From Stegostoma tigrinum (lineage: Eukaryota): 64,000 nucleotides of DNA. The translations under genes were made by a program, and so were the position numbers. The stretch lies in NCBI RefSeq assembly GCF_030684315.1, contig NC_081379.1:13091667-13155666 (forward strand). Direction: 5' to 3'. Below, one piece after another: positions 1 through 59,282 of this stretch (its first letter is position 1; every line of letters begins with the position of its first letter). The notes below the pieces were generated by a model that saw only the letters and a program-made list of their open reading frames with translations, did not search any database and had not been told where the DNA came from.

Positions 1-190
1 CCTAGCTTCACCCAGCCCTAACCCTCCTCCCTCTATTTGTTTCCCAGCTCCCTTCCTCTTCCCCAGTTCTGAAGAAACGTTCTGATCAGAAACATCAACT
101 TTCCTGGTCCTCTGATGCTGCCTGACCTGCTGTGTTCCTTCAGCTCCACACTGTGTTGGCTCTGACTGTAGCATCTGTGGTTCCTGCTTT
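1..190 (+). mobile_element. Degenerate Penelope-like pseudo-LTR
   Basis: ctccctctattt...ctgaagaa...gaaacatcaac...ctgctgtgttc...cagctccacac, similar to 34100-34247. Confidence 0.7.
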
Positions 191-1329
191 CTTCGAGTGA
201 CATAATCTCTCTTTTGTGTCTTGCAGCTTAGAGTGGGATGTCCACTATCTTGGCGATCAAATGGGTGACTCCATAACATAGAACATCAGCTCTTTTGAAG
301 AGATTAGTTTACAGCCCCTCAGTGGAAGCATCAGTAAGGCTGCCTTCTGCACTCCATACCAGCTTGACATGGATACCTCTGCTGGAACATCAGCCAGATT
401 AGAGGTGGGTGTACCTGGGTGAGAATGTGCTGCCATGACTCTACAGCTGTCTGACAGAGAAACTCCCCATTCCATAGGCACCTTAGAGATATGTGGGAGA
501 CAACAGCAGTCATAGATCAGTGGCTGCAGGTCTGCAGTTACACCATGGGGACCAAGGCCCCTCAGGCATGTGATCATCTGGCTGCCTCAATGAGCAGGAT
601 GTGCCATGGAAAACCACGTTCAGCACCCTCAGAGTCTACTGGCTATGCACACTGATCTGCACTCCATTGTTCTAACTATTGGTCCCCAACACAAATGGCA
701 AATGATAGGGCGATGTGGAACTTGGACCTCACACCAGTGCCCTACTAACAGAGACAAGACAGTGCCAGTTACCACCAAGATGGAGAAGGAACCATACCCA
801 GAATACTCAGATGTCTCCTCTCAGATCACTCCAGAAGTAGTAGGGCACTTCACCTGCAACCTGCCTGTGACCCAATATACATATGGGAGTTCAAGCTGAG
901 GAGGGTGCACTTAACTATGGCAAGGACACATTCACCATGTCTGGACTGTCCAGACAAAAATGACCCAACAAGCCTCCAACTCCAGTTGGCTCCACTGGAG
1001 GGCAGGCTTTCCCAATCCCAGCTGTAGATCGTGGGACTCGTTTTAGATATTGTCAGGGAAAAAGCAAAAAAGAATATATGTTGATTGTACATTGTGGGGA
1101 CTGGTGACACCTCACTGCAAATAAAGCCTACATTTGTTGAAATGAATTCCGAGTGCCCCGAATCTGTTTGCTCATGTACCTGTGTAGCCATTCCTGTAAC
1201 TTGTGCACTGTGAGGTCAGACATCAGTTCAGTTGCATGATGGTCCAAGGAGTTCAGCTGGATTTGAGAAGCTGCAGTATTGAATGTGGGCAACTTGGACA
1301 TAATGTTGGGAGGCACTACCAGAAACAGG

Positions 1330-2400
1330 GTACCAGTTCTCTAGGTTCATGAACATTGGTATGGCCACAATAGCCTCTTGTGGTCAAAGGTGTTAGTATT
1401 GCATGAAAATGTCTGGAAAGCTTGTGCCTGGAAGGACCCAATGAGGCAATGCATAAGGGTCACCAGGGATTTGGAGGCTGTAGGTGTGAGTCTATTTCAG
1501 TGAATCTGTGTCCAGTGTTGTTGAAAGGCCTAATATATCTGGTATTTGCAGCCTCTCCCTCACTGGTCAAGGCACCTACATTGCCCACTCCAGAGATGAT
1601 TATGATCATTTCCTTTCCCAATGTGCAGCTGTAGTTTCCAGGATGATGGAAGGTGACATCAAGTGCTCGTTGAATTTTAATTGCAAGGGTCCTGTTACAT
1701 GTTGGCAAGACCCTTCCTGGCAATCCTCCCATCAAACATATCATCTTTAAATGTCCACAGTCACTCATCCAACCCATCTATGTAAGACCATAAGACCATA
1801 AGACATAGGAGTGGAAGTAAGGCCATTTGGCCCATTGAGTCCACTCTGCCATTTAATCATGGCTGCTGGGCATTTCAACTCCACTTCCCTGCACTCTCCC
1901 CATAGCCCTTGATTCCTTGTGAGATCAAGAATTTATCAATCTCTGCCTTGAAGACATTTAATGTCCCGGCTTCCACTGTGCTCCATGGCAATGAATTCCA
2001 CAGGCCCACCCCTCTCTAGCTGAAGAAATTTCTCCTCATTTCCATTTTAAATTTAGCCCCTCTAATTCTAAGGCTATGCCCACGGGTCCTAGTCTCCCCA
2101 CCTAATGGAAACAACTTCCCAGTGTCCACCCTTTCTAAGCCATGCATTATCTTGTAAGTTTCTATTAGATCTTCCCTCAACCTTCTAAACTCTACTGAAT
2201 ACAATCCCAGGATCCCCAGCCATTCATCGTACATTAAACCCACATATGAGCTGCACTAGCCCAACATCCCCCCACAACCATTGGCACTGTAGGGTGTGTG
2301 CAACTGGTGACTTGGAGCATGCCCAGAGACATTGTTGCTGGGTGTTCAAAATGGTGGCCAGGAGGGGCAAGCAGTGAGCTGAAGTTGCCAAATACTTGCT
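1330..2400 (+). mobile_element. Possible highly decayed PIF/Harbinger (HARBI1-like) transposase remnant, split by the CR1 at 1783-2240
   Basis: Faint peptide echoes MEGDIKC (cf. QGAIDC), FNCKG (cf. NRKG) and LHVGKTLPG (cf. VCARFPG); weak. Confidence 0.3.
1783..2240 (-). mobile_element. CR1-type LINE 3' fragment
   Basis: ORF 2016-2243 [21 protein letters not shown]...TRGHSLRI is the CR1 ORF2 C-terminus; (TAAGACCA)n tail; possible TSD aacccatctatg / aacccacatatg. Confidence 0.92.
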
Positions 2401-2997
2401 CTGATTTTCCAATCAGGAATTGTTGATGTCTAGTTTCCTTGTGGTATGTGGTTACTTGAACCAGAATAATAATTAAGTGAAATTCATTGTTTATGAATAT
2501 GTTAACAAGCCAAAATTGCCCTTAAAAGGCATCTCAGCTCTCCCTAGTGAAAGTGTCATTTTGACCCCGGAGCTCAGTTTGAAAATGCAACGTATTACTC
2601 CTGCTATTGAGTAAGGTCTCACCTGAATTCTCACTCGATTCTCCCACATTCCTCACAATATTCCACAATTGTTCAGACCTTTACCAGTTTTCACCCTCTG
2701 CTTACATTTCAGCTGAAGATTCATGTTGGAATTGATACAGTGACTCCACAGATACTGTCAGACTGGCTGTGTTTCTCCAGCATTCTTCTGTTTACTGGAG
2801 TTAATGTCATACACGTTGTTGCTGGAGTCCATTTCTTTCACTGCTGTGAACATGAATTTGACTTCAACAGTGCTCGTGTCGTCTTATTGTGCTAATTAGT
2901 TCTGCACATGGCGCTGGATTCCAATGCTCTCAGTGTGGAGGTGCTAAACCCTGAGAATTATGACGCGCGATGAATGAGAACCCAGCTGATCAGTTCT

Positions 2998-3024
2998 GGC
3001 GCTGTCCACCCCTGTGGTGCTGAA
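2998..3024 (-). promoter_or_regulatory. Expanded-spacer RE1/NRSE (REST) site
   Basis: Reverse complement is TTCAGCACC-acaggggt-GGACAGCGCC: both consensus half-sites are perfect, with an 8-nt spacer instead of 2. Confidence 0.75.
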
Positions 3025-6300: not shown

Positions 6301-9300
6301 CTCTGCTTATTGTTGTCTAACCTCATACCAAAATACATCACCCCACACTTCTCTGCATCACACTTCATCTGCTACTTACCTGCCCATTTCACAAACTGCT
6401 TTATGCCCTTTTGAGTCCTCCTCCCAATTTCGAATGCTTCTTAATTTTATGTCATCCACAAACTTTGAAATTGTTGCCTGCACACTATGATATAGAAAAT
6501 ATATATCAGGAAAAGCAAGGGTCTCAGTCACAGCACTTGGGTGATTCAACCTTAAGCCATCCTACAGTCAGAAAATAACTTTTGACCACTACTGTTTCCT
6601 ATCACACAGCCAATTTTGTATCCACATTGCTACCATCCCTTTTGTTTCAAGAGCTATAACTTTTCTCACCCATCTGTTGTGTAGCGCATATTAATTACCT
6701 TTTGAAATTCTATATACATCACATCAACTGCATAAAAAAAAAGAACTGCAGATGCTGTAAATCAGGAACAGAAACGAAGTTGCTGGAAAAACTCAACATG
6801 GCAGCATCTGTGAAGGAGAAAATAGAGTTAACGTTTCAGGTCCGGTGAACTTTCCTCGGAACTGCAACTGCATTAACTTCTATGGCCCTATCTGTTACTT
6901 CAGAAATCTCCAGAAACTTAGTCAAACATGAAATAGTAAGAACTGTAAATGCTGCAGAATCTGAGATAACAAGGTGTAGAGCTAGATGAATACAGCAGGC
7001 CAAGCAGCATCAGAGGAGCAGGAAGGCTGACATTTTGGGCCTAAGCCCTTCTTCTGAAGGGTCTTCTAAAAAAGGGTCTAGGCCTGAAACGTCAGCCTTC
7101 GTGCTCCTCTGTTGCTGCTTGGCCTGCTGTGATCATCCAGTTCTATACCCTGCTATCTTAGTTAAACGTGATTTCCCTTTAGAAATTGATACGGTATTCT
7201 CCAAACTCACTTCCTGTGACATTCACTGAAGCATTGAGCTCGAAACTTTACACATTGTTCCAAATGCTGTCTTCTGAAAAAGAAAATTCCATGAATCCAT
7301 TCACTACCTTATAAGCACTACATAGTAGTAAATTCTTGTTATATAACTCTTGTGTAATTGGTTAGTTGCATAATAAATGGTCTGGGCAAGACAAAAGGTT
7401 AGTTTTCCTTGACTTTGAACCTAAAATTTGAGTAAATGATCAATGCATGCTTCCAAACCACTCTCAGTCATTAGCTTAAAACCTATATCCTCTTCCAAAC
7501 CTCTCTCAGTCATTAGCTTAAAACCTATATCCCTGAGTGGATGGATGCACGGCAGATGCAGTTTAATGTGGATAAATGTGCAGTTATACACTTTGGTGGC
7601 AAGAACAGGAAGGCAAATTACTATCTCAATGGAGTCAAGTTAGGTAAAGGGGAAGTACGACGAGATCTAGGTGTTCTTGTACATCAGTCATTGAAAGCAA
7701 GCATGCAGGTACAGCAGGCAGTGAAGAAAGCTAATAGCATGCTGGCCTTCATAACAAGAGGAATTGAGTATAGGAGCAAAGAGGCCCTTCTGCAGCTGTA
7801 CAGGGCCCTGGTGAGACCGCACCTGGAGTATTGTGTGCAGTTTTGGTCTCCAAATTTGAGGAAGGACATTCTTGCTATTGAGGGAGTGCAGCGTAGGTTC
7901 ACGAAGTCAATTCCCAGAATAGCGGGACTATCATATGTTGAAAGATTGGAGCGACTGGGCTTGTACACGCTTGAGTTCAGAAAGATGAGAGGGGATCTGA
8001 TTGAGGCATATAAGATTGTTAAGGGATTGGACACTCTGTAGGTAGGAAGCATGTTTCCGCTGATGGGTGAGTCCAGAACCAGAGGACACAGTTTAAAAAT
8101 AAGGGGTAGGCCATTTAGAACAGAGTTGAGGAAAAACTTCTTCACCCAGAGAGTGGTGGATATATGGAATGCTCTGCCCCAGAAGGCAGTGGAGGCCAGC
8201 TCTCTGGATACTTTCAAGAAAGAGATAGATAGAGTTCTTAAAGATAGTGGAATCAAGGGTTATGGGGATAAGGCAGGAACAGGATACTGATTGGGGATGA
8301 TCAGCCATGATCATAATGAATGGTGGTGCTGGCTCGAAGGGCCAAATGGCCTACTCCAGGACCTATTGTCTATTGTCATATCATATTCAATGATCTTATA
8401 TGACTCTATGTGTAAAACTGTACACAAGTCTATATTAAAGTGCATTGTCCACTGTGTTTCCCCAATTTATCCCAATCCAGTTGTAATCTGTCTCCCTCTT
8501 GAGTTCCCAACCTCACAACTTTTGATCTCATCTGCAAATGTAATTACTGCATGTGAGAAGGCACTTCATGTAAAACCACCCTTTGTTTACTGTCACTTAA
8601 TCTATTTTTATGCATTCCATCACCAAATTGGAGTCTAGTGTTTTGCAAAAAGCCTTTTAAAAATCCAACTATCTGAAATTTACTAGGTTCTCTTGAGTCA
8701 CCATTCTAGTCAGTCTCTATAAATGATTAACTCTTTCCGAATCTTTGTTGAATGTTTATTGTAACATCTATACATACCTCTTTAAATATTTGCCATTAAC
8801 CTCCTCTGCTCAGATATTATATTTTTGAGTTCATAGTTCCCAGGTTTGACTTTAATCCTCCTTTGAATAAAGTGATCACATGTGCTTCTCTTCAAACCTC
8901 AGGATGCAGTGAGGCATTCTGAATAATGCCTGACAGTGTATGACACCAGGTCTCCATCATGCTTTTGACAAAAATCAAGTGTGGTCTTGCTGCATTTTCT
9001 ATTTCTAGCCTTTTGAGCCATTTGAAAGGATGAGTTATGGTAAGATCCTCGATTATAATGAAAAGAATGGGCAGAGCGTGTGGAAGCTTAGTGTAAGGTA
9101 TTAGTAACTTATCAAACAGCATTTCTTCCTTGTGTGCTACCATGATTTTGAAATAGATATTAAAAGAATTCAACCAGGAATTGGAGCAGTGTTCAAATTT
9201 TCAACAATATTGTGTTTTACAGAGTGGGGATTTGCAAACTTCAGTGATCACACAAAAAAGCGTGATTTATCCTCTCCATAATATGTTGCAGTATATTTGC

Positions 9301-12300
9301 AAATAAAAGAACTGTAATTCTTTGTGATGGAACTTTGCTTGCTTTATATCTATGTATTTACATTTGGAATCACATGACTGTGTAATGAGAAACGTGGGAT
9401 AAATGAACTTACATATCTGACATTAAAATTCCTAATTTATTGGCAGATTATGTGGTCTTAAGTTATGAATCCAAACAAAAGCCTAATTGGTTTGCTGTAG
9501 TATTGAGCATACATAGTAAACCCTAAGCCCTTGCAGGTGAAACTAAAGGATACTGATGTATCCAAATATAATTCAGTCATTCTTTAAAACTCATCCATCA
9601 ACTATTCTTGTTATGTCTTATTTAAATGTAAATTACTATTAGAAGCAAACAGTAGGGAAAAAGTGTGAGATTTCTAATATATTATACAGAGTCAGCAACA
9701 CAGCACCATGATGAAAAATAGTATCAAACAATTTTAACTAATTTCCTATAGCTATAAAACAATTAACATATTTCTTAGTTGAAGGCAGTTATGATTGTTA
9801 AATGGAATATAATAAATGGATATGCTTTCCAGGAGACATAAAGAAATAAAATACCTTGTTTTATGAGGCGACCTTCAATGACTTTTGAATCAGTCTCATT
9901 CTACTGGAAATATTTATTGTATCAAATTAACTCAGTTGTGAACACTGTCATGTCTGGGCCAGAAGATTGTAGGCTTAAGCTGAAAAGTATTGAAGGGTAT
10001 GGAGAAGCAGGAAGACAAGTAATTCAAAGATATTGTTCTTTGTAAGTAGGATTGCAGGTAGATATAAGAAGGGAAATGGCATTTTGCATTTTATAGCAAA
10101 TAGCACAAAGTTAAAAGGTAAATATAACTGCATAAATCATGGTTAACTCTACAGCTTCTGCTTAGCTTTGGAACTCCATTGTAGAAAGGTCTTCAGTGTT
10201 ATTGAGATAACAGGATGCTCCCAGTTGGATGATGAAGTGAAGTTATAGTTATGCTACTTAAAAGAATGACTATTTCTAATGGAGAGTGTCGGTTAATCAT
10301 GGCAGGATATGAACTTGCAAAGTGTGCAATCCACAGTATTTCTTCAACTTTGCTCCAATCAACACTGGATGCAAAAATTGCTTCTCACATTGCTATGAAC
10401 AATAGCTGTGACACCCTAGTCAAATAAGTTTGCTAAGAACTGTAAAGTATGAGCAGCAGATATTAGATTTCCTTTAAAAAGTATTTTAATATTTTATGTA
10501 CTTTGTATGAGTTGATATTTGCTGAGGACTAATGTTTGTACCTGGGCATGAGGATGTCAGCAATAGTACTGACTTCCAATGATTTTGTCTGAAATTAGTT
10601 CAGGACCCGAGGATGATAAAATGATGAGTTTAAATGCTGATCACCAGAAATTTTATAGAAGCAAACGCTTGCCTGGTACGCTGAGGTATCAACAACAGCT
10701 TTGCCTAGAACTGGGAGGTTTATGGCAGGAAGAGAAAAGAAAAAAACTGGTATGATATTTTGGAAGTCAAAAGTGATGAATTGATTCATTAAATATTTGT
10801 ATGTTAAACAAAGTAGTCCAATGAAAAGCAAAAAAGTTAAAAGTGTTGTTATGTGATTTTTGTTTCAGGGAGTAAGAACTAAGTTTGTTCTAAAGCAACT
10901 TAAAATAGGTCACATCACAGTGATGTCTGTGAGGACTATATTTCTCAACACAAGTAAAATAAGTTATAATTTCACTTTGGTCTGTGATGCATAGAAATAT
11001 TACAGCAATAGTCAAACCTCAATCATGTTTAGTCTTCCTGTTGAAATTGTATGACTGGAGCTTTAGTCCAGGTCTCTAGATTTCTAGTTAAATAAACTTA
11101 CCACAATTATACTGTTTTCATATTTACTCTTGGGTTGATTGGAGCAATCCCAGACATTAACCTTCAACTCCTCAAAACTCAAATGCTGGAAAGTTGGTAC
11201 TTACTCTCTGTGAAATGTTTCCCAGTCATGATAGTGTGGTGAGTAGAACTATCATTAGCCTCAGACAATCTCCACATTTCAATTTCTAGTGCCAGATGTG
11301 GTCAGTTTTGCTGTCCAATCCCCTTACTGATACCTCAGTAACAAAATATTAAAGCTAGTCATAATTACTTGCTAGCGAGTTTTGAGAAGATTTGTAGCTC
11401 AAGTTGAGGTTCTGGATGTAAGTTTGCTCGCTGAGCTGGAAGGTTCACAGGAAATGACATCACCAACCCAAGGAAACCCAAACACATAAATAGAAAGTGG
11501 GACATAGCACCAGCGCTTCACCAGAAGCTCACTGATGATGTTACCTAGAAGAGTGACGAAATGTCTGAAAACGAACCTTCCAGCTCACCTTACATCCATA
11601 ATTACTTGCGTTTTTGGTATGTTACCTTTCTTTCTCCCTGATTGCCATAGGACCTGCAGCTGAGCAGGCTGTTCATCACTACCTTCTCAATGCAAATTAG
11701 GAACAGGAAACAGTTTCTGGCCTTGTGAGTGATACCCTTTCACATCCTACTAGAGAATATAAAAATAAAACAACCAATGTTACAGGGCCACCAAAGATCG
11801 CACTCTCCTAGTTTTCCTGAACTTAAATCTGTAAGTCAGAAACAAAGACATCCAGTGCTGTCATGTCTCTATAATCAATTTGCAATCCAAAAATGGTGCT
11901 TTTCAAAGCCTTTATTCACTCATGTTCTTGCATGATAAAATAAATAGTTCACTAGGAATACAATAAAAACTATAGTCAAATCCTGTCACACTTTGCTTGT
12001 CTCTTTTATCTTTCTATGCTTTTATCTCACAGTGCTGTGTTAGGAGAATACTGGAGGTGCTCATTGCTTCCATATCAAAGTAATGCCTGGCAGCACCCAG
12101 GAATATCTAACTTTGAATACTTTACTGCATTAATGTTTGATAAATAAATCACCATTAAAGGCAATTAGTGGATAATGGAATGCAACTTATTAAATTTGAA
12201 ATAGAAGGTTTATTTTGATGGCAGAGTCACTACCTGATGTGGTTCTAAGCCATTCCAGTTTAGAAAGAGCAATGCCTAATTTCTGGTCTATGCTGAGTTA

Positions 12301-15300: not shown

Positions 15301-18300
15301 CTTTCCTCGTAAGACCTTCCCTCCATACCAGGCAACATCCTAGTAAATCTCCTCTGCACCCTTTCCAAAGCTTCCACATCCTTCTTATAATGCGGTGACC
15401 AGAACTGTACGCAATACTCCAAGTGTGGCCGGACCAGAGTTTTGTACAGCCGCAGCATAACCTCATGGTTCCAGAACTCGATCCCTCTATTAATAAAAGC
15501 TAAAACACTGTATGCGTTCTTAACAACCCTGTCAACCTGGGTGGCAACTTTCAAGGATCTGTGTACATGGACATCGAGATCTCTCTGCTCATCTACACTA
15601 CTAAGAATCTTACCATTAGCCCTGTACTTTGCCTTCCGGTTACTCCTACCAAAATGCATCACCTCACACTCGTCTGCATTAAACTCCATTCAAGAGAGAA
15701 ATTCCCTTTCTTCTTTGAAAAATGCCATGGGATCTTTCACAATCTACTTGCGAGGCCATACATTCCATCCAAAGGTGCGGCAATTCACTGGAGAGTCAGT
15801 CGAGACTTTTGTGATCCAATCTCTAGAGTCAGTCTTGAACTCACACCTCCTGATTGAAAATGAAGGATACTTTTCCCTGAACCAATTCTGATTGTTACAC
15901 CAAGTAGTGTTGCTGTATCCCAACAAAGACAGCACTTCAGGATTAGATAAGACTGACAGGAATAGAATTAACCATTCCAAGGAAGGTGAGATAAAAGCGT
16001 ACTTAAAATTAAATACGTAAAAAGAGTCAAGAGATTTGAAAAAAGATTGCTCAGTTTTCAACATTCTGTGTATTTTTCAGATGTGTTCATGGTGGAGGAT
16101 GCTGTGGAGGCCATTGGATTTGGGAAGTTTCAATGGAAACTCTCAGTCCTTACTGGACTGGCATGGGTAAGGTCCTGTTCACTCAACCAATTCTTTTTCC
16201 CTAAAGCCTCAGCTGTTTAGCCCATTGAGAAGTAAAAATTAGAGAATGGTGGTAGTCATTGCAAAATCATAATGCAGACACAGGAAATGAAACAAATTTG
16301 AAGGCTGGGTGTGAGTTTGCTTGCTGAGCTGGAAGGTATGTTTTCAGACGTTTCGTCACCATTCTAGGTAACATCATCAGTGAGCCTCCGACGAAGCGCT
16401 GGTGTTACGTCCCGCTTTCTGTTTATCTGGTTAGGTTTCCTTGGGTTGGTGATGTCATTTCTTGTGTTGATGATGTCAGTTCCTGTTCTTTTTCTCAGGG
16501 GATGGTAGATTGGCTCCAAATCAATGTGTTTGTTGATGGAGTTCCGGTTGGAATGCCATGCTTCTAGGAATTCTCGTGCGTGTCTCTGTTTGGCTTGTCC
16601 TAGGATGGATGTGTTGTCCCAATCAAAGTGGTGTCCTTCCTCATCTGTATGTAAGGATACGAGTGATAGTGGGTCATGTCGTTTTGCGGCTAGTTGATGT
16701 TCATGTATCCTGGTAGCTAGCTTTCTGCCAGTTTGTCCAATGTAGTGTTTGTCACAGTTCTTGCAAGGTATTTTGTAGATGACGTTTGTTTTGTTTGTTG
16801 TCTGTATAGGGTCTTTTAAGTTCATTAGCTGCTGTTTTAGTGTGTTGGTGGGTTTGTGGGCTACCCTGATGCCAAGAGGTCCGAGTAGTCAGGCAGTCAT
16901 TTCGGAAATGTCTTTGATGTAGGGGAGAGTGTTATGGTTTCTGAGTCGGTTTTGTCTGTTTGTTTGGGTTTATTGCTGAGGAATCAGCAGACTGTGTTCA
17001 TAGGGGAACATAACACCAGCGCTTCATCGGAGGCTCACTGGTGATGTTACCTAGAATGGTGACGAAACGTCTGAAAACTAACCTTCCAGCTCAGTGAGCA
17101 AACTCACATCCAGAACCTCAACCTGAGCTACAAACCTTCTCAAAACTTGCTAAATTTGAAGGCTGTATAAAAGTAAAGAGTCTTAAAATTTGAATTAGTT
17201 AAACTAAATGATAACATGTCAGCCAGCACCTTTAAAAAACATTTAAGATGAATACCATTTAAAAATAAGGAGAGAGATGAACAAATTGTTCCAAAGTAGT
17301 TGAGCTATCAGAATGTCTGGTCAGAAAGGTAATTAACCAAGACAATGAGATATAAGATTAGACAATAAGATTGTAACATGTAAGAGCAGAAATTGGCCAC
17401 TTGACCCTTTGCTTTTGTGCTGCTGTTCAATGAGATCATGACTGACCTGATAATCGTCAATGTCACTGTTTTATTCTAAATGTGCACAATATTCAGAGCA
17501 AAATAAATGAATTAATTACATAAACAGTGGTTAATGGGTATGGTCTTATAGCCATTCTAGAGACATGATCACAAGGACATCAAAGCTAGGAACTATATAT
17601 TCAAGGGTATGTGAGTTTTGAACTTGCAGGCAAGAAGGAAAAACTAGTCAGGTAGCTTCATTAATAGAATAAGTGTAATGGTAATAATTAATCCAGGATC
17701 AGATGATCTATGATTTCTGGTGCAGGTAAGAAATAGTAAACAAAATTTATTGATAATCCTCAACTCCACTTTCCCACCTTTTCCCTATAACCCTTGTCTG
17801 TCGATTTTAGACTTGAACCTGCTTAATGACTCAACCTCTAGTGTAGTGAAGGAATCCGTAAATTCACTACAATCTGAGAGAAAACGTCCTCCACATTACT
17901 GTCATAACTGGGTGACATCTTTCTCTGAGATTATGTCATCTGGTCCTAAACTCTCCTGCAAAAGGGCAATACTTCAGTATTCCCTGATTTCCAAATTCCC
18001 TAATATTCTTATCAGCTTTGCTGGCCTCATAGCTGACATAGCTTGTGCTGACCAAAGTACATGCCCCAATTGGCATGTTGTCATTGACCACCATGTGTGT
18101 AACACCAGAGTAGCTGTGCACTTGTGCAGCCGCATAGCTGAGAGGGAATGTTGCTCCATATCTACACTGTCAAGGCTCCCAACAATCTTGTAGGTTTAGG
18201 TAAGGTCATCTAGTGTTCTGCTAATCTCCAATGAAAACTGAGCCAACCTGCTCAATTTCCCCTCATAAAACAATCTCTCTATATGCCGGATCACCCTCGT

Positions 18301-24300: not shown

Positions 24301-27300
24301 TTGCCTATGTTTTGGTTAATGATGGCAAGCTTTGAGGATAGCAAATGAGGGCTGGAGGGGAAGGAAGAAAATATAGTGGGGAGAATGACTTTCACCTCAC
24401 ACAATGAGGGGACAATGAGGGGGCAGTAGATCACAGGATAACTAAAAGACATCCTTTTTCAATCTTCTGTTACCTCATTGAACTGGTGTCAAAAATTCTC
24501 AGTCTGGCAATCTGAGTCTAATCATTGACAAAGGAAATGCTCTTACAGCAGATTCAAATCTCTGAACATTATAGAGTATCATCGAACATGGAGCATAGAA
24601 TATAGAATGGTACAACAAGGAACAGGTCCATGATGTTGTGCTGAACATGACACTAAATCAAACTACTCCCTTCTGCCTGCCCATGGTCCATATCCCCCCA
24701 TTCCTCGGTTATTCATGTGCTTATCTGAAAGCCCCTTAAAATGACCTTATCATGTCTACCTCCACCACTACCCCGGGTAGTGTGTTCCAGGCTCCTACCA
24801 ATTTCTGTGTAAAAAACTTTCCCCTTACATCTCCTTGCAACTTTCCCCCCTTTCACCTTAAATGCATGTACTCTGGTATTTGACATTTCAACCTTGGGAA
24901 AAAGATTCTGACTGTCAACCCTATTTACGCCTCTCATAATTTTACAAACTTCCATCAGGTCTCCTCTCAGCCTCTGCCACTCCAAAGAAAACAACCCTGG
25001 TTTGTCCAGCCTTTCCTTATAGCTCATACCCTTCTAAACCAGGCAGTATCCTGGTAAACCTCTTCTGCACCCTCTCCAAAGCCTCCACATCCTTCCTGTA
25101 ATGTGGCAACCAGAATTGAATGCAATACTCTAAGTGCGGCCAAACCAAAGTTTTATAAAGCTGCAACATCAATTCCTGACACTTGTACTCAGTGCCCAAA
25201 CCAATAAAGGCAAGCATGCCATACGCCTTCTTTACCACCCTACCTACTCATGTGGCCACTTTCAGGGAGCTCTGGGCTAGGACCCCAAGATCCCTCTGTA
25301 CATCACTGCTGTTATGTGTCCTGCCATTAACTGTATACAGTTCCTTAACATTTCATCTCCCAAAGTGCAGCACCTCACACTTACACAGGTTAAACCCCAG
25401 CTGCCATTTCTCCACCCATATCTATATTTTGCTGTATTCTTTGATAACCTTCTATGCTATCCACAACTCCCCCGATTTTGTGTCATCTGCAAATTTACTA
25501 ACCCTCACATCTATGTTTCCATTTAAGTCATTTACATAAATCACAAACAGCAGAGGTCCCAGTACGTATCCTTGCAGAACACCACTACCCATGGACCTCC
25601 ACAAGTACCATCTGTCCTCTATGGGTAAGCCAATTCCAAATCCAAATGGCCAAGTCACTATGGATCCCATACTTCTTAATCTTCTTGATGAGTGTACCAT
25701 GAAGGAACTTGTTAGAAGCCTTACTAAAATCTATGTAAAAAAACATCCACTGTTCTACCCTCATCGATCACCCTCATCACCTCCTCAAAAAAAATCACTC
25801 AAGTTAATAACAACATGATCCGCCCCAAATTCATATTGACTGTCCCTAATTAGGCCATGCTTTTCCAAATATGTGTAAATCCTATCCTTAAGACTTCTCT
25901 TCAATAGCCTCCCAACCACATATGTGAGACTCACCAGCCTATAATTTCCTGGATTATCTCTACTTCCCTTCTTGAACATAGGAACAATATTAGCTACTCA
26001 CCAGTCTTCGGGACCTCTTGAGGGGCCCCAGTCTCCGCATCGTAGATTCTTTATAAAAACTATTGAACAGCCTGGAAAATATCTGGATGTATTAAAATTC
26101 TGTGCAGAGAAGTTATCAGGAAAGGACTTAATCAACTAGGCTTCTGTAATACTGGGAAACTGGATTGCAGGTTACATTTATAAACTCGCCTGATGAGAAA
26201 GCTGGGAAGGTTTAACCAACCTTAACCCCATCATTGTTGTGTGTTAAAGTTAATGCTATCATTAGTGCTATCATGCTCTATTTCTCATTTCTAGTGGCTT
26301 CCAGAAAGTGCACGTTACGATGTATTATCTGGGAACCAAGAAAAAGCGATTGCCACATTAAAACGCATTGCTACAGAAAATGGAGCACCAATGCCACTTG
26401 GAAAATTGATAGTTGCCAGACAGGTAAGGGATGGCAGTTACTTTTTATTAAAATATTACTTCTGTTAATACAGAACATGATTTTTGTACAGCAGATTGTG
26501 TATTAAACATTATATTAAACAAGAATATCTTTTTAGATCTCAACCCCACCCCTCGCATTACTTTCTTCAATCCATTCTCCCTTCAGATCTGTATCCTATT
26601 GCTTTTCAAATCATTTAACCAGTTTCCAAAGCCTTTGTTTATAACTTTTTCCTTGTGTGACTTAAGGGAAGGGGATGTTTGGAGCCCTTTTCTCGTTGCC
26701 TCACATATCTTGGTTGTGTGCAACAGGAGGTATATTTTAAAGGGGATATTTTGAAATCTTTTTGGCATTCTGACTTTGGTAATAGAAATGAAGCAAGATT
26801 TCAGGTCAGAAGGACAATTAGGGATTATTCACCCAACACCATTGTAGGAGCATTTATCCCGAATGGGGGCAAAGACCTGGGAGACAGGCAAGTGGAAGAT
26901 GTTTATACAGCAGAAACCAGTTTATACAGGTGGTTTATACAGTGGTCCATCAATGTGTTGTGTTACCCTTCAGTTTCTTGCCAGGTGGGTTTCATAGCTT
27001 GGTCATTATAGGGCACTTACTTCTCTGGGGGACCAGGTAAATGAATGAATGAATGAAAAAGCCAAGAACCAATTTATCTGCAACACTGTGTGTACTATCT
27101 GGAAATCAGTTTGGAACCAGAAAAGGCAGCCAATTTATAATGATTTTGCCAGTCTGCTGTCTTAGCCTGGAACTTAAACAGAAGTTGCTGGAAAAGCTGA
27201 GCAGGTTTGGCAGCGCCTGTGAAGAAAAAAATCAGGGTTAACGTTTCAAGTCTGGTGACCCTTCCTCAGAGAAGCTTTCCCAACGTTAACCCTGATTTTT

Positions 27301-41147: not shown

Positions 41148-41287
41148 TAATGGGGACTGTTATCTTGGATTCTCCAGCATCTGCAAAGTGTGGAGCTGGA
41201 TGAACACAGCAGGCCAAGCAGCATCGCAGGAGCTCCTGAGATGCTGCCTGGCCTGCTGTGTACATCCAGCTCCACACTTTGTTATCT
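41148..41287. mobile_element. Rearranged palindromic Penelope-like insertion
   Basis: Loopless hairpin of about 98 nt at 41184-41281; 14-bp TSD tggctttcctgtga at 41134-41147 and 41288-41301. Confidence 0.8.
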
Positions 41288-43275
41288 TGGCTTTCCTGTG
41301 AGGTCTTTTTATTCCAAACAATAAGAATGTGTTCAACGTAAATTCAAATGTGAACTTCATAGCATATTAATAAATTAATGCTGTGCTTCGATAGTCATTG
41401 TGCACCTACAGATTGGGTTTATCAGGTGAGTACTGTCTCGTGTTTGAATGTATTTTACTTGTTCTCGAAGCATTGAACTGGAGCATTTTACTGTTTACAA
41501 AATATATGCAGTGCTTGCATGACAGCCTGTCACTGGTTAACTTTTTTTTGATTTGATGTAAATAAGCTACTTCATAGCAATGGAACAAAAATATACTTAA
41601 TGATATTAATGTTTGCATTGCAATATCTAAAGATAATTTTATTAAATAAAGATTCTTTTTGTATTTCATTTAGGTTTTATTGAGATCTTTTGTAATAAAT
41701 TTTAAAATTTTTTTACAGGTGAGCAAGTTGAATTAATAAGTTCATTATTCCACATTAATATGTCAACAATATCAATTCACAATTTTTTTTGTTGCTAAGA
41801 ACAATATTATACTACACTATTCTGTTTGGTTGAATCAACTATGTTAAAAAGATTAGTTGCTTTTATCAAATAACTGTCCTGTTAATTCATTCCATATTGC
41901 TAAGGTGATGATGTAATGTCACAGCTTCATTCTTCATTCTTTTAGTTCTCATTGCATGAAGACTGCGCATTTTTTAAGTTTAATATAACAATTGCTATAA
42001 CGCTTTGTGAAAAATCAAAAATACAGTGAATATATTATTTTTGAGTTACATTCACATTAATTTGTCTTATTATTTGTCTTTAGTTCACAAATCAATTCAA
42101 GGTGTCTTCAACACTGAAGTGTTTATTGACTGGACGGATTATGCGCAACCATTGCAGATCCCATTAAAAACACTTTATTCCTACTTGATAAGATTCAGTT
42201 AAATGACAGAGTCATTAGAATTGTACAGCACAGAAAAAGACCTTTCAGTCTAGCTCATCCCTGCCGATCAGATATCCCAAATTGATCTAGTCCCATTTGC
42301 TACGAATCACAGCAAATAAAATTCACAGTAGCACAATTTAAATGCAAAAAATTCTGCAAGATAATTCCGGTTATGGTCACTGCTCCATGTGTAAATTGCA
42401 GATTCTTAAAAAAAATAAATTGATTAACATGATTAAAGAATTTAAATACTAATCTTTCCTCCTATCATTTGTCAGGGTAGTTAATCAGGACAGGCCAAAA
42501 CAAACTGGGATATCCAGACAGCCTAAGTTAGTTATAAAGAGCAGTGCTCTGGTCCACCTATCAAGTCTAAAATGTAGACTAGAAAGAAACAAAAATCACA
42601 ATTTATAAAGAGTTAAAAGAAGGAACAAAATCACATTAATATGAATTTGTACCACTGCATTGTGCCACAGAGTGAGTGGTACATCGATTCCCTACTGCAA
42701 ATTTCTAAAGCTCACCAGCGAGTATCTGCCATGAATCATATGCACATTTCGCAACAATTTAAGTCCCAAATGGGGTCACAATTGGGAAGCACTATGTCAA
42801 TGATTTAAAGCTTATTTGCATAACATTTGGGGATATGATATGCTGAATCCATTGTATTTTATGCTTTAATAATCTGTCTCATTGAACCTTTTATAGGTTG
42901 CAGAACAGGAGTTTCCCTTTCATAAACAGTTGTGAATGGGTTTTTTTTCTGAGTAGCGTTACCCTTGCCATTGTTACCATATAGTTCATTCATTCTGCCC
43001 ATAGTGTATACGTGGCAAATGAGCAGAGAAGGGCAATAGGTTTTCATGAAGTGGATGGGTAGGAACAGTAGTAGGCACTGAGGCTATAAGGGACCAGGAA
43101 GTTGGGTAGCAACATAAGATGGCACCAAATTGAAATGGAGAGGGGACAGAAGGCACGGAACTGGTATTGGTTGAAAAGATTCCCAAATCCAGACTACTAT
43201 TCTTGACACCTCCTCAACAAGCCAGCCCAATTACATGAAAATCGCTGTTGCTAGGAGATGACTATCTTCAAACAG

Positions 43276-50000: not shown

Positions 50001-53000
50001 ACTGCATCTTTACAGGAGGCACTACTTTGACTAATTGCAATGGGGCTAACATTTTCTAAATCAGATTGCTAAGAGACACTTGATCATTCTGCCCAATAGC
50101 CAGTCTGTGTATTTAAAAGCCATTGAAGTCTGACTTCAAATTCTGAATTATGTTTTACGCATATTTATGACAATATTTACAAATTCACTACTCCCACACC
50201 ATAGAGTTACACAGCATGAAAATAGACCCTTTGGTCCAACTCATCCGCATTGACTGCCATCCCAATCTAACCTACTCCCATTTGCCAGCATTTGGCCTAA
50301 CTCCCTCTAAACCCTTCCAATTCACTTACACATCCAGATGCCTTTTAAATGTTGTTATTGTATTCACTTCCAGCACGTCCTCTCGCAGCTCATTCGGACA
50401 TGCGCCATCCTCTAAATAAAGGTACCCCTCAAGCCCCTTTAAATCTTTTCCCTCTGACCTTAAGTCTATGCTCTCTAGTTTTGGATTTCCTGACCCTGGG
50501 GAAAAGACCTTGGCTATTCACCCTTTCCATGACCACCGTGATTTTATAAACTACTATAAGGTCACTCCTCTATGTCTGACACTCCAGGGAAAATTGCCCA
50601 GACCATTCAGGCCCTCCCTATAGATCAAAACCTCCTGTCCCAACAACCATCTTATAAATCTTTTCTGCACCCTTTCAAGCTTTAACAATATCCTTCCTAT
50701 AAAAGGGCAAAGAGAATTGTACACAGTATTCCAAAAGCGGCCTCACCAATATCCTGTGCAGCCACAAAACTGTCAACACTCAATGTTATGACCAAAGAAG
50801 GCAAGCTTGCCAAACACCTTCTTCACAACCCCATCTACCTGTGACTCCAGTTTCACGGAATTATGCTCCTGCACACCTAGGTCTCTTTGTTCACCAACAC
50901 ACCCCAGTGTCCTACCACCTACCGTGCAAGTCCTGACCTGGTTTGCCTTACCAAAATGTAACACCTCACAGTTATCTGAATTAAACTCCATCTGCCACTC
51001 CTCAGCACATTGGCCATCTGATCAAGGTCCCATTGTACCCTGAGATACTCTTTTTCACTGTCCATTACACCACCTATTTTGGTGTCATCTGAAAAACTAC
51101 TAACCAAACCTCCTTTATTCACATCCAAAACATTGTTATAAATGACAAAAAAAATCAACATGCATCATAAAGATCTCTGAAAGCTGCCTCTTATAGTAAG
51201 GTAACAAAGTGTGGAGCTGGATGAACACAGCAGACCAAGCAGCATCTTAGGAGCACAAAAGCTGACGATTCGGGCCTAGACCCTTCATCATTTTCTGAAG
51301 AAGGGTCTAGGCCCGTAACGTCAGCTTTTGTGCTCCTAAGGTGCTGCTTGGCCTGCTGTGTTCATCCAGCTCCACACTTTGTTATCTTGGATTCTCCAGC
51401 ATCTGCAGTTCCCATTATCTCTCCTCTCATGGTAAGGTCTAGTTTCAACAGAAGATATCTGGATTTTAATAAGAAAAGCCTTCCTGAAAAGTACCAACTC
51501 TAGAGGCAGCATTTAAGACATAAATTAATTAATTTAACTTAGGGAAAGGCTGTCCCTTCTGCATATGATGTCTCTTTAGAAGCTTGAAGAACTTTTCCAA
51601 CAGAAGAACTCTTCCCTTTTGAGCTGATCTCCCCGCAGAAAAGCAGTTTTGATGTTAATTGACCTCCATCACTAAATATCGGTTTTTGACAAACTAAGAA
51701 AATTTTTTAAATTGCTGGGTGAAACTGTAATGAATCTACTCTTCCATCTTGGTCCCCCAATTTGTCTTCAAACCATCATGCCACTATCCTTGCTTTAACC
51801 TCATATGTCCATAAGGATGTAAATATTCCTCCATATCATTTATGCAATAGAAATGGCTGTCCCCTATATGGCACATCTGTGTACACCCCAAATACTGCTG
51901 TTTGGCAGTTTTTATGAATGCTTCCTAGTTTGTTTGGTGGCAATCACACCTATACTCCAAAACATCAGCCTGAAGGTCTAGGTTATCAGGACAGTGATAT
52001 TACCACATTCTCACCATCTTTGCTATATGGGTTTCGGCACCTGGTGAAACCCCTGGTATGCAATATATTCTTTGACTTTAAGATAGGTCTTCTATCATTC
52101 ACTTACCTGTTTCCTTGTGACATCACACTTTGCTGCTTTCTCTCAAATGGATCACTTCACAGACTGAGACCTTGCTCCAGTTAACTAGTTAACTCTAATC
52201 CTTGTCACAAAAGTTTAGTTGATAGACAGATCATTATATGGGAAGTGACAAAGCAATCCTGAGTCTTTATTCATCAAATACCCCAGCTTTTATGAAGGTA
52301 ACATGAACCGTAAAAAGGTACAAAAGATACAAGAGGACTGACACTTCCCTGCAGGGAAGAAAGGAGCCGTAAAAAAATCTATTCATCCTGTTTTTTCATA
52401 TCTCATAGCTTGATTGCATCCACCAACACTGGTACAGGGGTGGACATCTAAAAAAAAAGGGGCTCATCCTGAAATAAAGGAAGGCTACTTTGTCACTGTT
52501 TTGTCCTGTGAACAAAATTCTTTCTGGATTAGTATGCTTACAGACAGAAGAATGGCGAGTTTATAAAGCTCTGACACAGCCCATTTTACCTGCATATTCA
52601 AATAAATTGTGCAAAAATAAATTTAGGGAAGTCAGTAGAGCCAAGGTGATGCGGGGGGCGGGGAAGAAGGACAGAAACAATCAAAATCAACAATGATGAT
52701 ACCTGACAAGAAACAAAAGCAAGGAACAAAATTCCAGAGGACTGATAATCGGAGCATTTAACTGCTCTCCAATCAACATTCATAATTGTTACCTTTGTGG
52801 CTTTCAGTCCTTTAGGTGATTTGTTTATACTTACCCTGGTATAATATATGGTTCGGTATAAATTCCAGCCTTTTGATCATGTGAGAGAATGAAGTGCTTT
52901 ATCCATGGTGCATAAACCTGATAATTTTAAGTAAATGAGATATGAAATGACTGAAATATTGGGTAACTTGAAACAAGTGAAATATATTGTACAACAGTAT

Positions 53001-56000: not shown

Positions 56001-57309
56001 CTCCGTAATCACTTCCTGCCCTTAAGCTTTTGGAGATTCCAGTTCCTTTACAGCTGGTGTCTTGTGCATGCCCAATTTTCATCACTCACTGCTGGCATCC
56101 TGGTGTTCTGGTCCTGACTTCTGGAATTTCATTTCTAAAACTCTCTGCATAGGTTCTTATTTTTCTAATTATATCTTAGCTCTTCGGTTAACTTTTTTGG
56201 GCCACTTATTCTAACGTATCTCAATGTAACTTAGTATTAGATTTTCTCTGATAATACTTCTGTGAAGCTTCTTGGGATAATTTACTACAAAAAGATACTT
56301 ATAGTTTGAAATATTTGTTGTGATATCTGGGAGGCCTGAAAAGACATTCCCATCTTTAAAAAAAAGATAAAACAAAGAACTGCGGAGCTGGAAATCTGAA
56401 ACAAAATGAACAGAAACTGATGGAAAAACTCAGCAGGTCTGGCAACATCTATGAAAGGAAGACAGAGTTTATATTTTGAGTCCTACGACCCTTCTTCAGT
56501 ATTTATAATATATAGGAAAAAGTTGCTTTTATGTTTATGAATGGCGAGTTGGAGCATGATTTAGAGCGGTAGGTAGGAGAATACTTCTTCAACTATGACT
56601 ATTATCAGGATATAGGAGGAGGATTAATTATTAAAATTGATATTTTGTCTTGTAATGAAGAAATCCTGGTTCCAAAAGTACTAACACTGAAGTATGTTGA
56701 AAGTTTAATGTTTATTGAAGAGGGAGCACAATTTTGCACACAACTGATTACTCTGATTTGGTTAGGTATGAAAGGGCCCAAAATACAAATCAATTTCTCA
56801 TCTGGAAGCAGATGCTTTAAAACATTGAATTCAACGGGAACTCTGGCAGAGTGGCTGTAAATTACTGTTCCTTAGAACAGCAACTGCTGCATCATCTGTA
56901 CCAGCAATGATAATGGCCCATCTACATGAACTGGAGTTTAGCACTATCAGCATGGACAGCTGGCAGGTATTTGGAAACAGGGTCACTGATAATCCTACAC
57001 GTTACAAAATTGAAAAGAAGTATTTTTGTTCACTTGGATTAATAGTTTTAACTTTCTTTACTGATCAACTGCATGCAAGGATTGTCCATTAACCTAGAGT
57101 GCAAATCAATGCCTATGGATAAATGAGAGATGGTTTATCTCTGGATTCAATTTCTACTTTCCAGGAATGCAACCTTTGGTGATACCACTGTCTGCAAAAA
57201 TATTTTAGGATGTCTTTCGGAAAAATAAATACCTAAATCCAGGAAACAGTCTGAGTTCTTCTTCTGTCAAATGTCTAAACCCCCAAACAGCATCTTTCCA
57301 GGATGGGTC
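43921..57309 (-). CDS. DAO: DAO, D-amino-acid oxidase; 5'-partial, last 8 coding exons (726 nt = 241 aa + stop)
   Basis: Minus-strand exons: 57233-57309, 55639-55704, 53820-53874, 53577-53678, 52835-52917, 48832-48949, 48647-48745, 43921-44046. All GT-AG and phase-consistent. Motifs include [28 protein letters not shown] (Tyr224/Tyr228 equivalents), GLRP (Arg283 equivalent), HNYGHGGYG and the C-terminal SQL. Lies tail-to-tail with SVOP, as in human. Confidence 0.96.
44197..44426. mobile_element. Tc1/mariner-superfamily (pogo/Tigger-like) MITE
   Basis: TIRs CAGGTAGTCCTCCTATAAC ... GTTATAGCAGAAATACCTG; TA on the left flank, AA on the right; 230 bp. Confidence 0.75.
47830..48600 (-). mobile_element. 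Degenerate LINE RT fragment (non-CR1 family)
   Basis: gaatggtgctgaacatt...agctgaaaatggttgggcc...gagtccttgatgccacac, RT-region antisense sequence. Confidence 0.55.
48647..48745 (-). CDS. DAO: DAO exon ([33 protein letters not shown])
   Basis: ttgcag acceptor, gtatga donor, 99 nt. Confidence 0.95.
48832..48949 (-). CDS. DAO: DAO exon ([39 protein letters not shown])
   Basis: ttttag acceptor, gttggt donor, 118 nt. Confidence 0.95.
49330..50190 (-). mobile_element. Decayed Copia-like LTR retrotransposon RT/RNase H fragment
   Basis: Minus-strand peptides in Copia order: [41 protein letters not shown] and Q(LLI)CFTK. Confidence 0.7.
50200..51160 (-). mobile_element. CR1 LINE 3' fragment
   Basis: ORFs 50919-51161 ([10 protein letters not shown]) and 50773-50991 ([14 protein letters not shown]); catagagttacacagc 3' end. 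Confidence 0.9.
51203..51422. mobile_element. Short inverted Penelope-like (Neptune family) insertion
   Basis: Inverted arms of about 88 bp; imperfect TSD cctcttatagtaagg / cctctcatggtaagg. Confidence 0.8.
52835..52917 (-). CDS. DAO: DAO exon ([28 protein letters not shown]), active-site lid
   Basis: ttatcag acceptor, GG|gtaagt donor, 83 nt. Confidence 0.95.
53577..53678 (-). CDS. DAO: DAO exon ([34 protein letters not shown])
   Basis: ttggcag acceptor, gtaagt donor, 102 nt. Confidence 0.95.
53820..53874 (-). CDS. DAO: DAO exon ([18 protein letters not shown])
   Basis: tttaag acceptor, gtattc donor, 55 nt. Confidence 0.92.
54095..55430 (-). mobile_element. CR1 LINE ORF2 fragment
   Basis: ORFs 54662-55045 (LGPLL...DDTKIGG) and 54226-54690 ([14 protein letters not shown]). 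Confidence 0.9.
55639..55704 (-). CDS. DAO: DAO exon ([23 protein letters not shown])
   Basis: ttttgcag acceptor, AG|gtaaga donor, 66 nt. Confidence 0.95.
56368..56500 (-). mobile_element. Penelope-like pseudo-LTR fragment (third family, degenerate)
   Basis: aaaacaaagaactgcggagctggaaatctgaa...actcagcaggtctggca...gacccttcttcag. Confidence 0.65.
57233..57309 (-). CDS. DAO: DAO exon ([25 protein letters not shown])
   Basis: ttcacag acceptor, AG|gtattt donor, 77 nt. Confidence 0.95.
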
Positions 57310-57894
57310 CTGTGAAGAAAAACGAACAAAGAATGTTGGATTAATTTTCCTCAAGTTCTGAAATATTACAACCATACAAATTAATTTTTTTTTTCCTTGC
57401 CATAATCTCAATTGCATACAGGTAAGACTTGAGTTTCAGTAAACAAAACTATATTCCATTCGGCTATCTTTCTGTTTACCTAGCTATCTGAGATTAGTGG
57501 TATATATGTCCTTGGGGACAGTCCACTGACATTTAGTTATCTGATTTCGAACGATACTAAGAAGGAACCAATAAGTTTCCTGTATGAACTCAGATCAATG
57601 CTTATACTTAGAAAGAGCAGGCTGCGCTGTACTGAGATAGTCAGGGCCAAATCTATCCAAAAGTATCATTGTGTAGGAAAACATCTTTAGAAATTAGTGT
57701 CACAACTTAAACTCAGCATTGGTCAGTAAAGTCAGCTTACAAGCATCACAATCTAGAAATCACTGCAAACAATATTGACACGTAAATGCTTAACATGGTA
57801 AGATTAAATTGGTCTGTTCACTACTTTAGCTGATATATTAGTTCACCAAATAAAACTGTATAATGCCAAAGTTAACATGAAGCATTTTTTAAAT

Positions 57895-58228
57895 ACAGAG
57901 TCCCTACAGTGTGAAAACAGGCCACTTGGCCAAATAAGTCCACATTGACATCCCAACCAGACTCACCCCCTTAACCAATCCTTGCACTTCCCACAGCTAA
58001 TCCAGCTAACTTACATATCTCTGGACACTCTGGGCATTTTAGCATGGCCAAACCACCTAACCTACACATCTTTGGACTGTGGGAGGAAACCAGAGCACCC
58101 AGAGAAAACCACGCAGACACAGGGAGAATGTATTAACTCTACACAGGCAGTCACCCAAGGATAGAATCCAGCCTGGGTCCCTAGTGCTGTGAGGCAACAG
58201 CGCTAATCAGTGAGTCATCATGCCAGCC
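57895..58228 (-). mobile_element. HE1-type tRNA-derived (V-domain) SINE
   Basis: gggaggaaaccagagcacccagagaaaaccacgcagacacagggagaatgt V-SINE core; tRNA-like head at the right end; CR1-like tail ccctacagtgtgaaaacaggcc. Confidence 0.85.
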
Positions 58229-59055
58229 CCCTTTTTTTTGCTCTGTTTTATGTGCCCAAACTCCATCAGAACTCTATCAGGGGAGTGAGATTGCTAAAAT
58301 CTAGGTCAAACAGTGCAAGTGTCAGAATATATATCATGTTCTTAGACTCTGAAATGGAAATAATTTAGAGATCAGCAAGTGGATCAAACTATTTTTAAAG
58401 TTAAAATGGCAAGACATTAAAAGGAGATGTAGCAACAATGATGAATTATAATGTATTTTAAGCATAGAAGAGATTCCAAATGAATTGGCACAGTTGTCTA
58501 TCGCTCACTGTCTCATATCAACTCCTTTTCTGCATTTAGTGAAAATTTTACAATGGTCTGCAGCACATGACACTAATTTTGTGGATCTTCACAAAATATA
58601 AAGAAATAGGAGGCCACATTGTTTGTGAACTCTCCAAACTATGTCTCCTTTAAACATAGCTCCCAGCTTTGGATATAATATTAATACAGTCATCCTATAT
58701 TGTGCTCCATACGTACGCTGAGCTTTTCATGTTTAGGTAAACTTTTCAAGTTCTGAGCTGCTTTGCAGCATTTCATCGTAGGCAAGTGCTGAAAGCATTT
58801 CACATTTGCCCTATAAAACCTGAAAACATGTTTGGTTCTGCCACTGAATAAAATGAAGTAATCACTTGCTGGCAATGCTCATCTCAATGGCAGCAAAAAG
58901 CAGACATTCGACTACCATCAGCTCAATTCATACAAATAATCTAAATTCCCAGTTCAAAATGCATAATTGCTGAATGAAACATACCGTGAAAGTAGATATA
59001 TAAAATTAGTTCAAAATCATGATGCCGAACAAAATGTCAAAAGGATCCATGGTGT

Positions 59056-59282
59056 GTCCTGAAGCAAACCAGGTTCTTCCCTGGACTGACCTATCCCCTC
59101 CCTACCTCCCCACCTATCTTCTTTTCTCTCCATCTTCGGTCTGCCTCCCCCTCTCTCCCTATTTATTCCAGAACCCTCACCCCATCCCCCTCTCTGATGA
59201 AGGGTCTAGGCCCGAAACGTCAGCTTTTGTGCTCCTGAGATACTGCTGGGCCTGCTGTGTTCATCCAGCCTCACATTTCGTT
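59056..59282 (+). mobile_element. Penelope-like 3' UTR / pseudo-LTR (Neptune family)
   Basis: Homologous to 33975-34247; 11-bp TSD atccatggtgt at 59045-59055 and 59283-59293. Confidence 0.8.
59192..59223 (+). ncRNA. Minimal type I hammerhead ribozyme motif (PLE-associated)
   Basis: CU-CUGAUGA-A-GGGU-CUAG-GCCC-GAAAC-GUC-AG: intact core, 4-bp stem II, palindromic ACGU stem III. Confidence 0.7.

Follow-up and report, generated by a model that had tools for sequence, protein, structure and literature searches.

A 64,000-nucleotide (nt) stretch of the genome of the shark Stegostoma tigrinum (positions 13,091,667-13,155,666 of contig NC_081379.1, in an assembly of 3.2 Gb; hereafter the window) contains repeats of three families (A, B and C) that share a hammerhead ribozyme core. 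Judged from their sequence, these repeats are truncated ends of Penelope-like elements (PLEs) with a minimal type I hammerhead motif. The motif is located between the GIY-YIG end of one element unit and the beginning of the following unit. Truncation at the 5' end affects most copies, about half have a head-to-head arrangement, and decay of the copies is neutral. It is very probable that minimal hammerheads occur in the terminal repeats of two PLE lineages and that the short copies are dead by-products of reverse transcription that was initiated a short distance downstream of the motif and stopped early.

Open reading frames (ORFs) encoding GIY-YIG or reverse transcriptase (RT) plus GIY-YIG are present directly upstream of the motif, on the same strand, in families A, B and C, which bears out an initial annotation of the window that had taken the repeats for PLE termini. 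Longer family A copies elsewhere in the genome (L059) have RT and GIY-YIG motifs within a single frame (RVT_1, E=7.2e-11), as does the family B copy L052 (RVT_1, E=3.2e-06). Both L059 and L052 have the layout of endonuclease-bearing (EN+) PLEs, in which RT is followed in one frame by a C-terminal GIY-YIG with CCHH. In long family B copies (L049-L058), RT is accompanied by DKG, a CX4CXXC linker and GIY-YIG, and the best of them have the core approximately 230 nt further downstream. The named proteins most closely related to that of family B come from the carpet sharks Rhincodon, Stegostoma and Chiloscyllium (78-94% identity). Among the loci examined, only GIY-YIG-side remnants were found upstream of family C cores (L137, L075 and L158; 43-66% identity to the B protein). 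Motif positions are numbered here from C3 of the core. Full-length relatives (P0007, P0009 and P0017) have an N-terminus homologous to the sequence that follows the B tail, from about +165 onwards, and the motif therefore lies in a repeat that serves as the 3' untranslated region (UTR) of one unit and as the 5' UTR of the next.

The three families had initially been described as unrelated, which does not hold for two of them. The alignment of families B and C extends over both core and tail (score 39 against a shuffle maximum of 28; tail alone 29 against 25), whereas alignment of A with B or C gave nothing beyond chance outside the shared core. A CX2-5CXXC linker between RT and endonuclease is present in the Neptune and Nematis clades and absent in Poseidon (PMC8557442). 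The B protein contains the linker CNRRKCYTC and the A protein has no such linker. By this motif criterion, which does not separate Neptune from Nematis, family A is Penelope/Poseidon-type and families B and C are Neptune-type, C through its similarity to B. The repeats thus form two lineages, rather than three unrelated families, on the evidence of motifs and alignments.

Cluster consensuses were built from 169 copies covering the core, drawn from a 1-Mb genome sample of 100 evenly spaced 10-kb stretches. The A, B and C consensuses carry the boxes CUGANGA, GAAA and UH in type I order and without loop III, one unpaired base after A9, the pair G10.1-C11.1, and CG at 15.2-16.2. Stem I of family A is UCA/UGA (3 bp) with a distal GGAGG/CUUCC helix (5 bp), and stem II is GUUACC/GGUGAC. 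Young family B copies have CU/AG and GGGU/GCCC as stems I and II, respectively, older B consensuses have UU/AG or UU/AA and GGGU/GCCC or GGGU/ACCC, and family C has AGUU/AACU (4 bp) and GGGUC/GACCC. The stem II sequences first quoted for the window match these consensuses but are not kept in every copy that was listed with them. The catalytic positions are all kept in the consensuses of both lineages, with G12 as a CpG-decay variant in one four-copy cluster. In the 1-Mb sample, stem II comprises at least 4 bp in 46 of 57 strict matches, and positions 15.2-16.2 of 87 relaxed matches with stem II are CG in 49 and the CpG-decay forms CA or TG in 34.

Six pairs are changed on both sides between A and B/C when the register is imposed by the structure, a register that MAFFT failed to recover. 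Within the Neptune group, pair 2.2-1.2 changes from C-G to U-G to U-A and pair 10.4-11.4 from U-G to U-A, which gives qualitative support for the structure only. Loop II differs between subfamilies, whereas stem II pairing is retained. The covariation reported earlier holds only among the family consensuses; stem II is broken in some copies, and only two independent lineages contribute, so that formal significance is out of reach.

A recognisable core was found at all 14 window positions named in the initial annotation. Only four of these cores are intact, with both boxes, a stem II of at least 4 bp and the 15.2-16.2 pair: 11532-11565 (+), 16380-16347 (-), 27269-27240 (-) and 59194-59221 (+). 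No intact core occurred in 50 shuffles of the window. The other ten cores are mutated. A BLAST search of the window with five references identified 20 copies with a tail, several of them entirely without a core, and missed a decayed copy at 56499.

Genome-wide, the strict core pattern CTGANGA-N10-24-GAAACGTY has 191,930 exact matches against 1,051 for the reversed pattern, which is a 183-fold excess and one match per 16.7 kb. One family B 30-mer has 94,491 matches and a family A 34-mer 6,988, with none for either control. The 1-Mb sample contains 57 strict cores against 0 reversed, and the full descriptor gives 57 matches, compared with none in the reversed sample or in three shuffles; the density is far in excess of chance. 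Tail-bearing copies in the sample number 316 (222 B, 82 C and 12 A). Approximately one short repeat per 3 kb (316 per Mb, or about a million by extrapolation) is hence the end of a PLE and not a short interspersed element (SINE).

There is very little probability that abundant repeats produced the pattern as an artefact of chance or of palindromes. Identity within a family reflects descent, so that copy number gives no structural evidence, a search of Rfam with the window at E<=1 gave no hammerhead family and four chance-level matches to other families, and MAFFT does not register A with B/C beyond the second box. An artefact is nevertheless refuted by the reversed-pattern and shuffle controls, including the 183-fold excess. 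Two lineages with nothing else in common also have the same boxes, the same spacing and a paired stem II, and the motif occupies the site described for PLE hammerheads (PMC4209133, PMC11167929).

The dispersed copies show no sign of being maintained. Among 115 B copies, departures from the reference were counted at 36 of 1142 non-CpG core sites and at 164 of 4696 stable tail sites (p=0.65); core and tail decay at the same rate, and there is therefore no detectable selection on dispersed copies. G12 is altered in 25% of 114 B copies because it lies in a CpG. The genome-wide hammerhead reservoir proposed for this species is accordingly very large in number, but a reservoir of working ribozymes is not supported.

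The traits given for EN+ PLEs in PMC8557442 (5' truncation, an inverted partner, and a tail of 30-40 nt at one end only) are all found here. A head-to-head partner accompanies 144 of the 316 sampled copies. Family B tails end near +92 and near +128, approximately 36 nt apart. Of 35 B pairs, 27 join a tail end near +92 with one near +128, none joins two alike ends, and eight have one end outside both classes. The 10 nt that follow 89 young B copies (at least 90% identity, edge copies dropped) contain 65% AT against a background of 58%.

The 5' ends of these 89 copies lie upstream of -40 in 31 cases, at -40 to -6 in two, at -5 to +9 in 31 and further downstream in 25; the excess at -5 to +9 over -40 to -6 has p=1.6e-14. 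The description of the repeats as short therefore applies only in part, as 31 copies reach beyond -40 into the upstream part of the element. With equal flank filters, 5,666 family B starts were counted genome-wide at -2 and 81 at -10. Family C has a similar peak (31 of 81 starts at -5 to +4), although old UTRs align less well. Truncation at the 5' edge of the ribozyme in family B is the sole unexplained feature. Several other readings were rejected. A G-quadruplex stall in the C-rich UTR is ruled out by 0 of 89 young B starts at -40 to -11, a 3' splice site at the boundary by the lack of an AG there and of a common upstream exon, and a type III permutation by the lack of an upstream ACGUH in the B UTR. 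A hot spot shared with family A was ruled out by 30 A copies with no peak.

Work on the PLE of Anolis carolinensis (PMC11167929) provides a model for these footprints, and by analogy we infer that the shark elements work like the Anolis element. The protein of the element would nick both target strands, and reverse transcription would begin at two tail sites approximately 36 nt apart (+92 and +128 in B). Priming at two sites could yield hairpin insertions whose tails differ in length, one being short and the other long. In the Neptune-type families B and C, the 5' edge of the ribozyme fold may be where many templates end or where the enzyme dissociates, and such a stop would leave core-plus-tail copies of 95-135 nt. 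Selection on the fold would have acted in master elements and not in the dispersed copies. The B breakpoint profile and the rule of one short plus one long tail provide testable in vivo footprints of the mechanism.

A stop at the fold edge may reflect a defined RNA 5' end or an enzyme stall caused by refolding. The RNA end is slightly favoured, because pieces of the element's 5' ORF join the UTR directly (at -5, about -1 and -134), which is expected from run-off plus a template jump; the joints at -5 and about -1 are in L060 and L091. One tentative proposal, held at odds clearly below even, is that the RNAs of Neptune PLEs begin at a fixed position, the edge of the hammerhead fold, which is set by a start site or by protein-protected trimming. 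Tail-primed reverse transcription would then run off after approximately 100-135 nt, in the manner of strong-stop synthesis, and mass-produce hundreds of thousands of ribozyme-plus-tail insertions, and template jumps or one-off RNA circles would give single-locus arrays as a birth stage of retrozymes. If so, the genome would be a fossil map of PLE RNA ends that marks the ribozyme boundary and not the cut site.

Several observations weigh against minimal hammerheads in terminal repeats and early-stopping reverse transcription as the source of the short copies. Stem I of family B has 2 bp and fits only the 2-bp variant of helix I. In the predicted lowest-energy fold of the B monomer, the first box is base-paired to the cleavage triplet, and the hammerhead was the lowest-energy fold in none of four representatives. 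Among the 57 full-descriptor matches in the sample, stem I has at least 3 bp in 11 and at least 4 bp in seven. Family A shows no hot spot, with 0 of 30 starts at -16 to -1 in a set picked for an intact core, in which starts inside the core are invisible; the stop at the ribozyme edge is therefore not general. A breakpoint peak at the predicted cut site, which lies before +28 in family B, was not seen in pattern counts that are confounded by indel variants. The pattern for +28 has 4,172 matches, but 77 of the first 100 inspected by eye belong to an extra-base subfamily and most of the others look like indel variants; the neighbouring counts, made with different flank filters, are 117 at +26 and 376 at +30. 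Twelve back-joints displayed from four contig sets with the common-base reference include one at +28 and five at -4 to +2, in contigs that cannot reveal RNA ends. Earlier contig joints to +28 came with a reference carrying a variant base there.

Self-cutting by the RNA motifs is a prediction. Cleavage after GUC or GUU is predicted only for a dimer formed through the ACGU palindrome or with the protein of the element. The chances of cleavage in vivo appear about even for families A and C, whereas for family B cleavage is doubtful. An alternative that we regard as rather unlikely is that the motif, mainly in B, no longer cuts and is retained in the element RNA as a structure that binds protein or marks a boundary. 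The 2-bp stem I of B with its competing, core-hiding hairpin agrees with this alternative, as do breakpoints at the fold edge and not at the scissile bond. In the Anolis work (PMC11167929), hammerhead mutants left in vitro insertion unimpaired and no RNA-seq reads started or ended at the cut site. The same paper also reports that the Anolis motif was cleaved upon addition of the protein, and a 2-bp helix I is known from a Drosophila virilis variant (PMC4209133). Retention of all catalytic positions in the consensuses of two distant lineages, apart from the G12 decay in one small cluster, likewise speaks against a motif that has lost its activity.

Tandem arrays with a complete core in each unit were found at two loci of the 1-Mb sample, L133 (unit of approximately 440 nt) and L151 (301 nt). 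Each unit combines the end of the UTR, the core, the tail and the start of the ORF, and the junction is identical in both arms of an inverted structure. The arrays are located at L133:6760-8434 and L151:4982-6183 and comprise internally joined family B units. Their junctions are confined to their own loci, with four and three exact genome matches, and are not placed at the cleavage site. This suggests that reverse transcription rolled or jumped on a single template, and the arrays resemble multimers formed once, from a template that was circular or used repeatedly, rather than amplifying families.

The arrays bear on the retrozyme-like, non-autonomous amplification that had initially been proposed. 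This explanation, which is quite improbable, treats the short copies as non-autonomous elements in their own right (retrozymes or SINE-like masters) that amplify via ribozyme-cut circular RNAs. Arrays with complete cores are the form named non-LTR (long terminal repeat) retrozymes in 10.64898/2026.07.22.740005, and the sharp 5' boundary of the short copies resembles a discrete element start. These points are offset by the two tested arrays, each of which has its junction only at its own locus and off the cleavage site, so that no retrozyme unit dispersed as a family was seen, and by the 64-kb window, in which no tandem array of the motif was found. Short-copy starts also range over approximately 15 nt, their flanks are unrelated, and they grade into long copies that reach the RT. 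A 5' head derived from an RNA gene, as in SINEs, was not found either; the short copies start at the core and are flanked by unrelated sequence or an inverted copy. Truncation of PLEs during reverse transcription is the reading preferred here.

PLEs with hammerheads have been described before in other animals, and what is added here is a taxon and a large number of copies, most of them decayed. Minimal hammerhead ribozymes (min-HHRs) are massively spread as single motifs from truncated PLEs, in thousands of copies, and occur in Poseidon and Neptune PLEs of fishes (PMC4209133, Cervera & De la Pena 2014). The shark motifs resemble these min-HHRs in the type I core without loop III, the unpaired base after A9, G10.1-C11.1, the palindromic 15.2-16.2, the terminal repeat position, the prevalence of single dispersed copies, the occurrence of some close opposite-strand pairs and the presence of several families per genome. 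They differ in the 2-bp stem I and 4-bp stem II of family B; helix I has 4-5 bp in Schistosoma and 2 bp in the D. virilis variant (PMC4209133). Counts in the same paper are approximately 4,000 for coelacanth and 9,000 for Xenopus tropicalis, against 191,930 strict cores here, with descriptors that differ. Cores with a stem I of at least 4 bp number seven per Mb in the sample, or approximately 22,000 genome-wide by extrapolation. No shark is named in the portion of PMC4209133 examined or in two of its three supplementary files. No paper on shark PLE hammerheads was recognised by title or abstract opening, and Lunse et al. (PMC5785218) or the supplements of the preprint 10.64898/2026.07.22.740005 may hold examples. 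The weak, dimer-dependent cleavage of PLE hammerheads has been reviewed (PMC6765202), and their role was termed unclear in PMC8557442.

The Poseidon element PAc of Anolis carolinensis (PMC11167929, Frangieh et al. 2024) shares with the shark elements two tail end points, AT-rich flanks and the use of both strands. The PAc ORF starts at stem II and overlaps the hammerhead, and shark family A is similar, as its loop II holds both a stop codon and an ATG. PAc was studied by in vitro assays, whereas the shark elements are known here from sequence, and the available portion of the PAc text does not mention a truncation hot spot at the ribozyme edge. Non-LTR retrozymes (PMC7229834; 10.64898/2026.07.22.740005) are likewise PLE-derived hammerhead repeats, with up to 120,000 copies in axolotl (PMC7229834). 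The preprint by Li et al. (10.64898/2026.07.22.740005) found retrozymes in the single chondrichthyan that it covered and reported cleavage in one of nine Xenopus dimers. L133 and L151 fit its working definition of a retrozyme, namely two or more tandem units with complete motifs. Unlike non-LTR retrozymes, the shark motifs are minimal and not canonical, both arrays are single-locus, and the window contains no array.

The window contains intact and mutated copies of family A. The copy at 11373..11587 (repeats I2 and I18) has a plus arm from -85, in which the boxes of core 11532-11565 are intact, and an inverted tail-only partner (-, 11445-11373). A 5'-truncated family A (Poseidon-type) PLE at 16302..17005 (-) contains a GIY-YIG frame (16888-16364; PF01541, E=0.0012, under the curated cut-off), the intact core 16380-16347 and then the tail; the stop codon of the frame falls in loop II of this core. 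Its inverted 5'-truncated partner at 17005..17152 (+; I4, I18) has a longer tail and a core (17038-17071) with A6 altered. In family A, an ATG follows one base after the stop codon in loop II and opens a frame through the tail. At 16367-16361 (-) and 17052-17058 (+), the stop of one unit and the candidate start of the next are thus one base apart.

The family B copies include a 5'-truncated Neptune-type PLE at 33381..34250 (+), which comprises a CX4CXXC linker, a degraded GIY-YIG frame (33348-33746), a pyrimidine-rich UTR, core 34155-34182 (A9 altered) and a tail. A Pfam search of this remnant gave no match. The young copy at 59055..59285 (+), with intact core 59194-59221 and a tail to +91, contains a 20-nt piece from the 5' ORF region of the element itself (59055-59074), fused to UTR position -134. 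Head-to-head pairs are present at 6930..7161 (I3, I8), 51198..51422 (I5) and 41185..41290 (I24, I25). The arms of the first start near -2 and carry cores with box changes (7056-7029 (-) and 7066-7093 (+)). The second has arm starts at +1 and -1, tail ends at +93 and +127, and mutated cores at 51291-51264 (-; C3 and A15.1 altered) and 51295-51322 (+; A13 altered). The third is a pair of tails, both from +37 and without a core. Single B copies are a short copy from the core at 24103..24194 (-; I9; core 24194-24167, G12 altered, stem II broken) and a copy broken within stem II, without the first box, at 35732..35855 (+). An old Neptune-type (B-like) 3' end at 22..184 (+) starts at -45, has 70% identity to young B, and carries the decayed core 69-96, in which stem II is lost.

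Family C is represented by a short copy from -5 at 6739..6864 (-), with core 6859-6830 (U4 altered), a hairpin insertion at 27170..27395 (I14), and a tail without a core at 27801..27853 (-). The minus arm of the hairpin starts at -1 and carries the intact core 27269-27240, whereas the plus arm starts at +24 and lacks a core. Decayed C-like copies are located at 34698..34787 (+), which was absent from the initial annotation, and at 56409..56499 (-; D19; core 56499-56470, G12 altered). In family C tails, e.g., at 6829-6808 (-), the sequence after the cleavage site resembles a 3' splice site (pyrimidine tract and CAG) and is followed by an ATG.

Other features of the window include two same-frame stretches at 53529-53894 (-) that match residues 150-170 and 175-215 of D-amino-acid oxidase (DAO; E=1.4e-09). 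These are likely two exons of a DAO-family gene split by a short intron without an in-frame stop. A short frame at approximately 36462-36557 (+), which had no match in Pfam, resembles what we take to be an SVOP-type transporter exon. Together, they suggest a convergent SVOP-DAO gene pair, and many repeat copies may therefore be intronic. Related frames at 7517-8041, 15075-15689, 21698-22303, 24713-25033 and 54226-55048 presumably correspond to the 3' parts of CR1-type long interspersed elements (LINEs). A perfect 171-nt direct repeat (D9; 14901-15071 and 15841-16011) surrounds a LINE-like fragment and is long for a target-site duplication. Inverted repeats of 169 nt (I1; 17571-17739 and 19261-19429) are 93% complementary, lie 1.5 kb apart, and possibly represent a non-autonomous DNA transposon.

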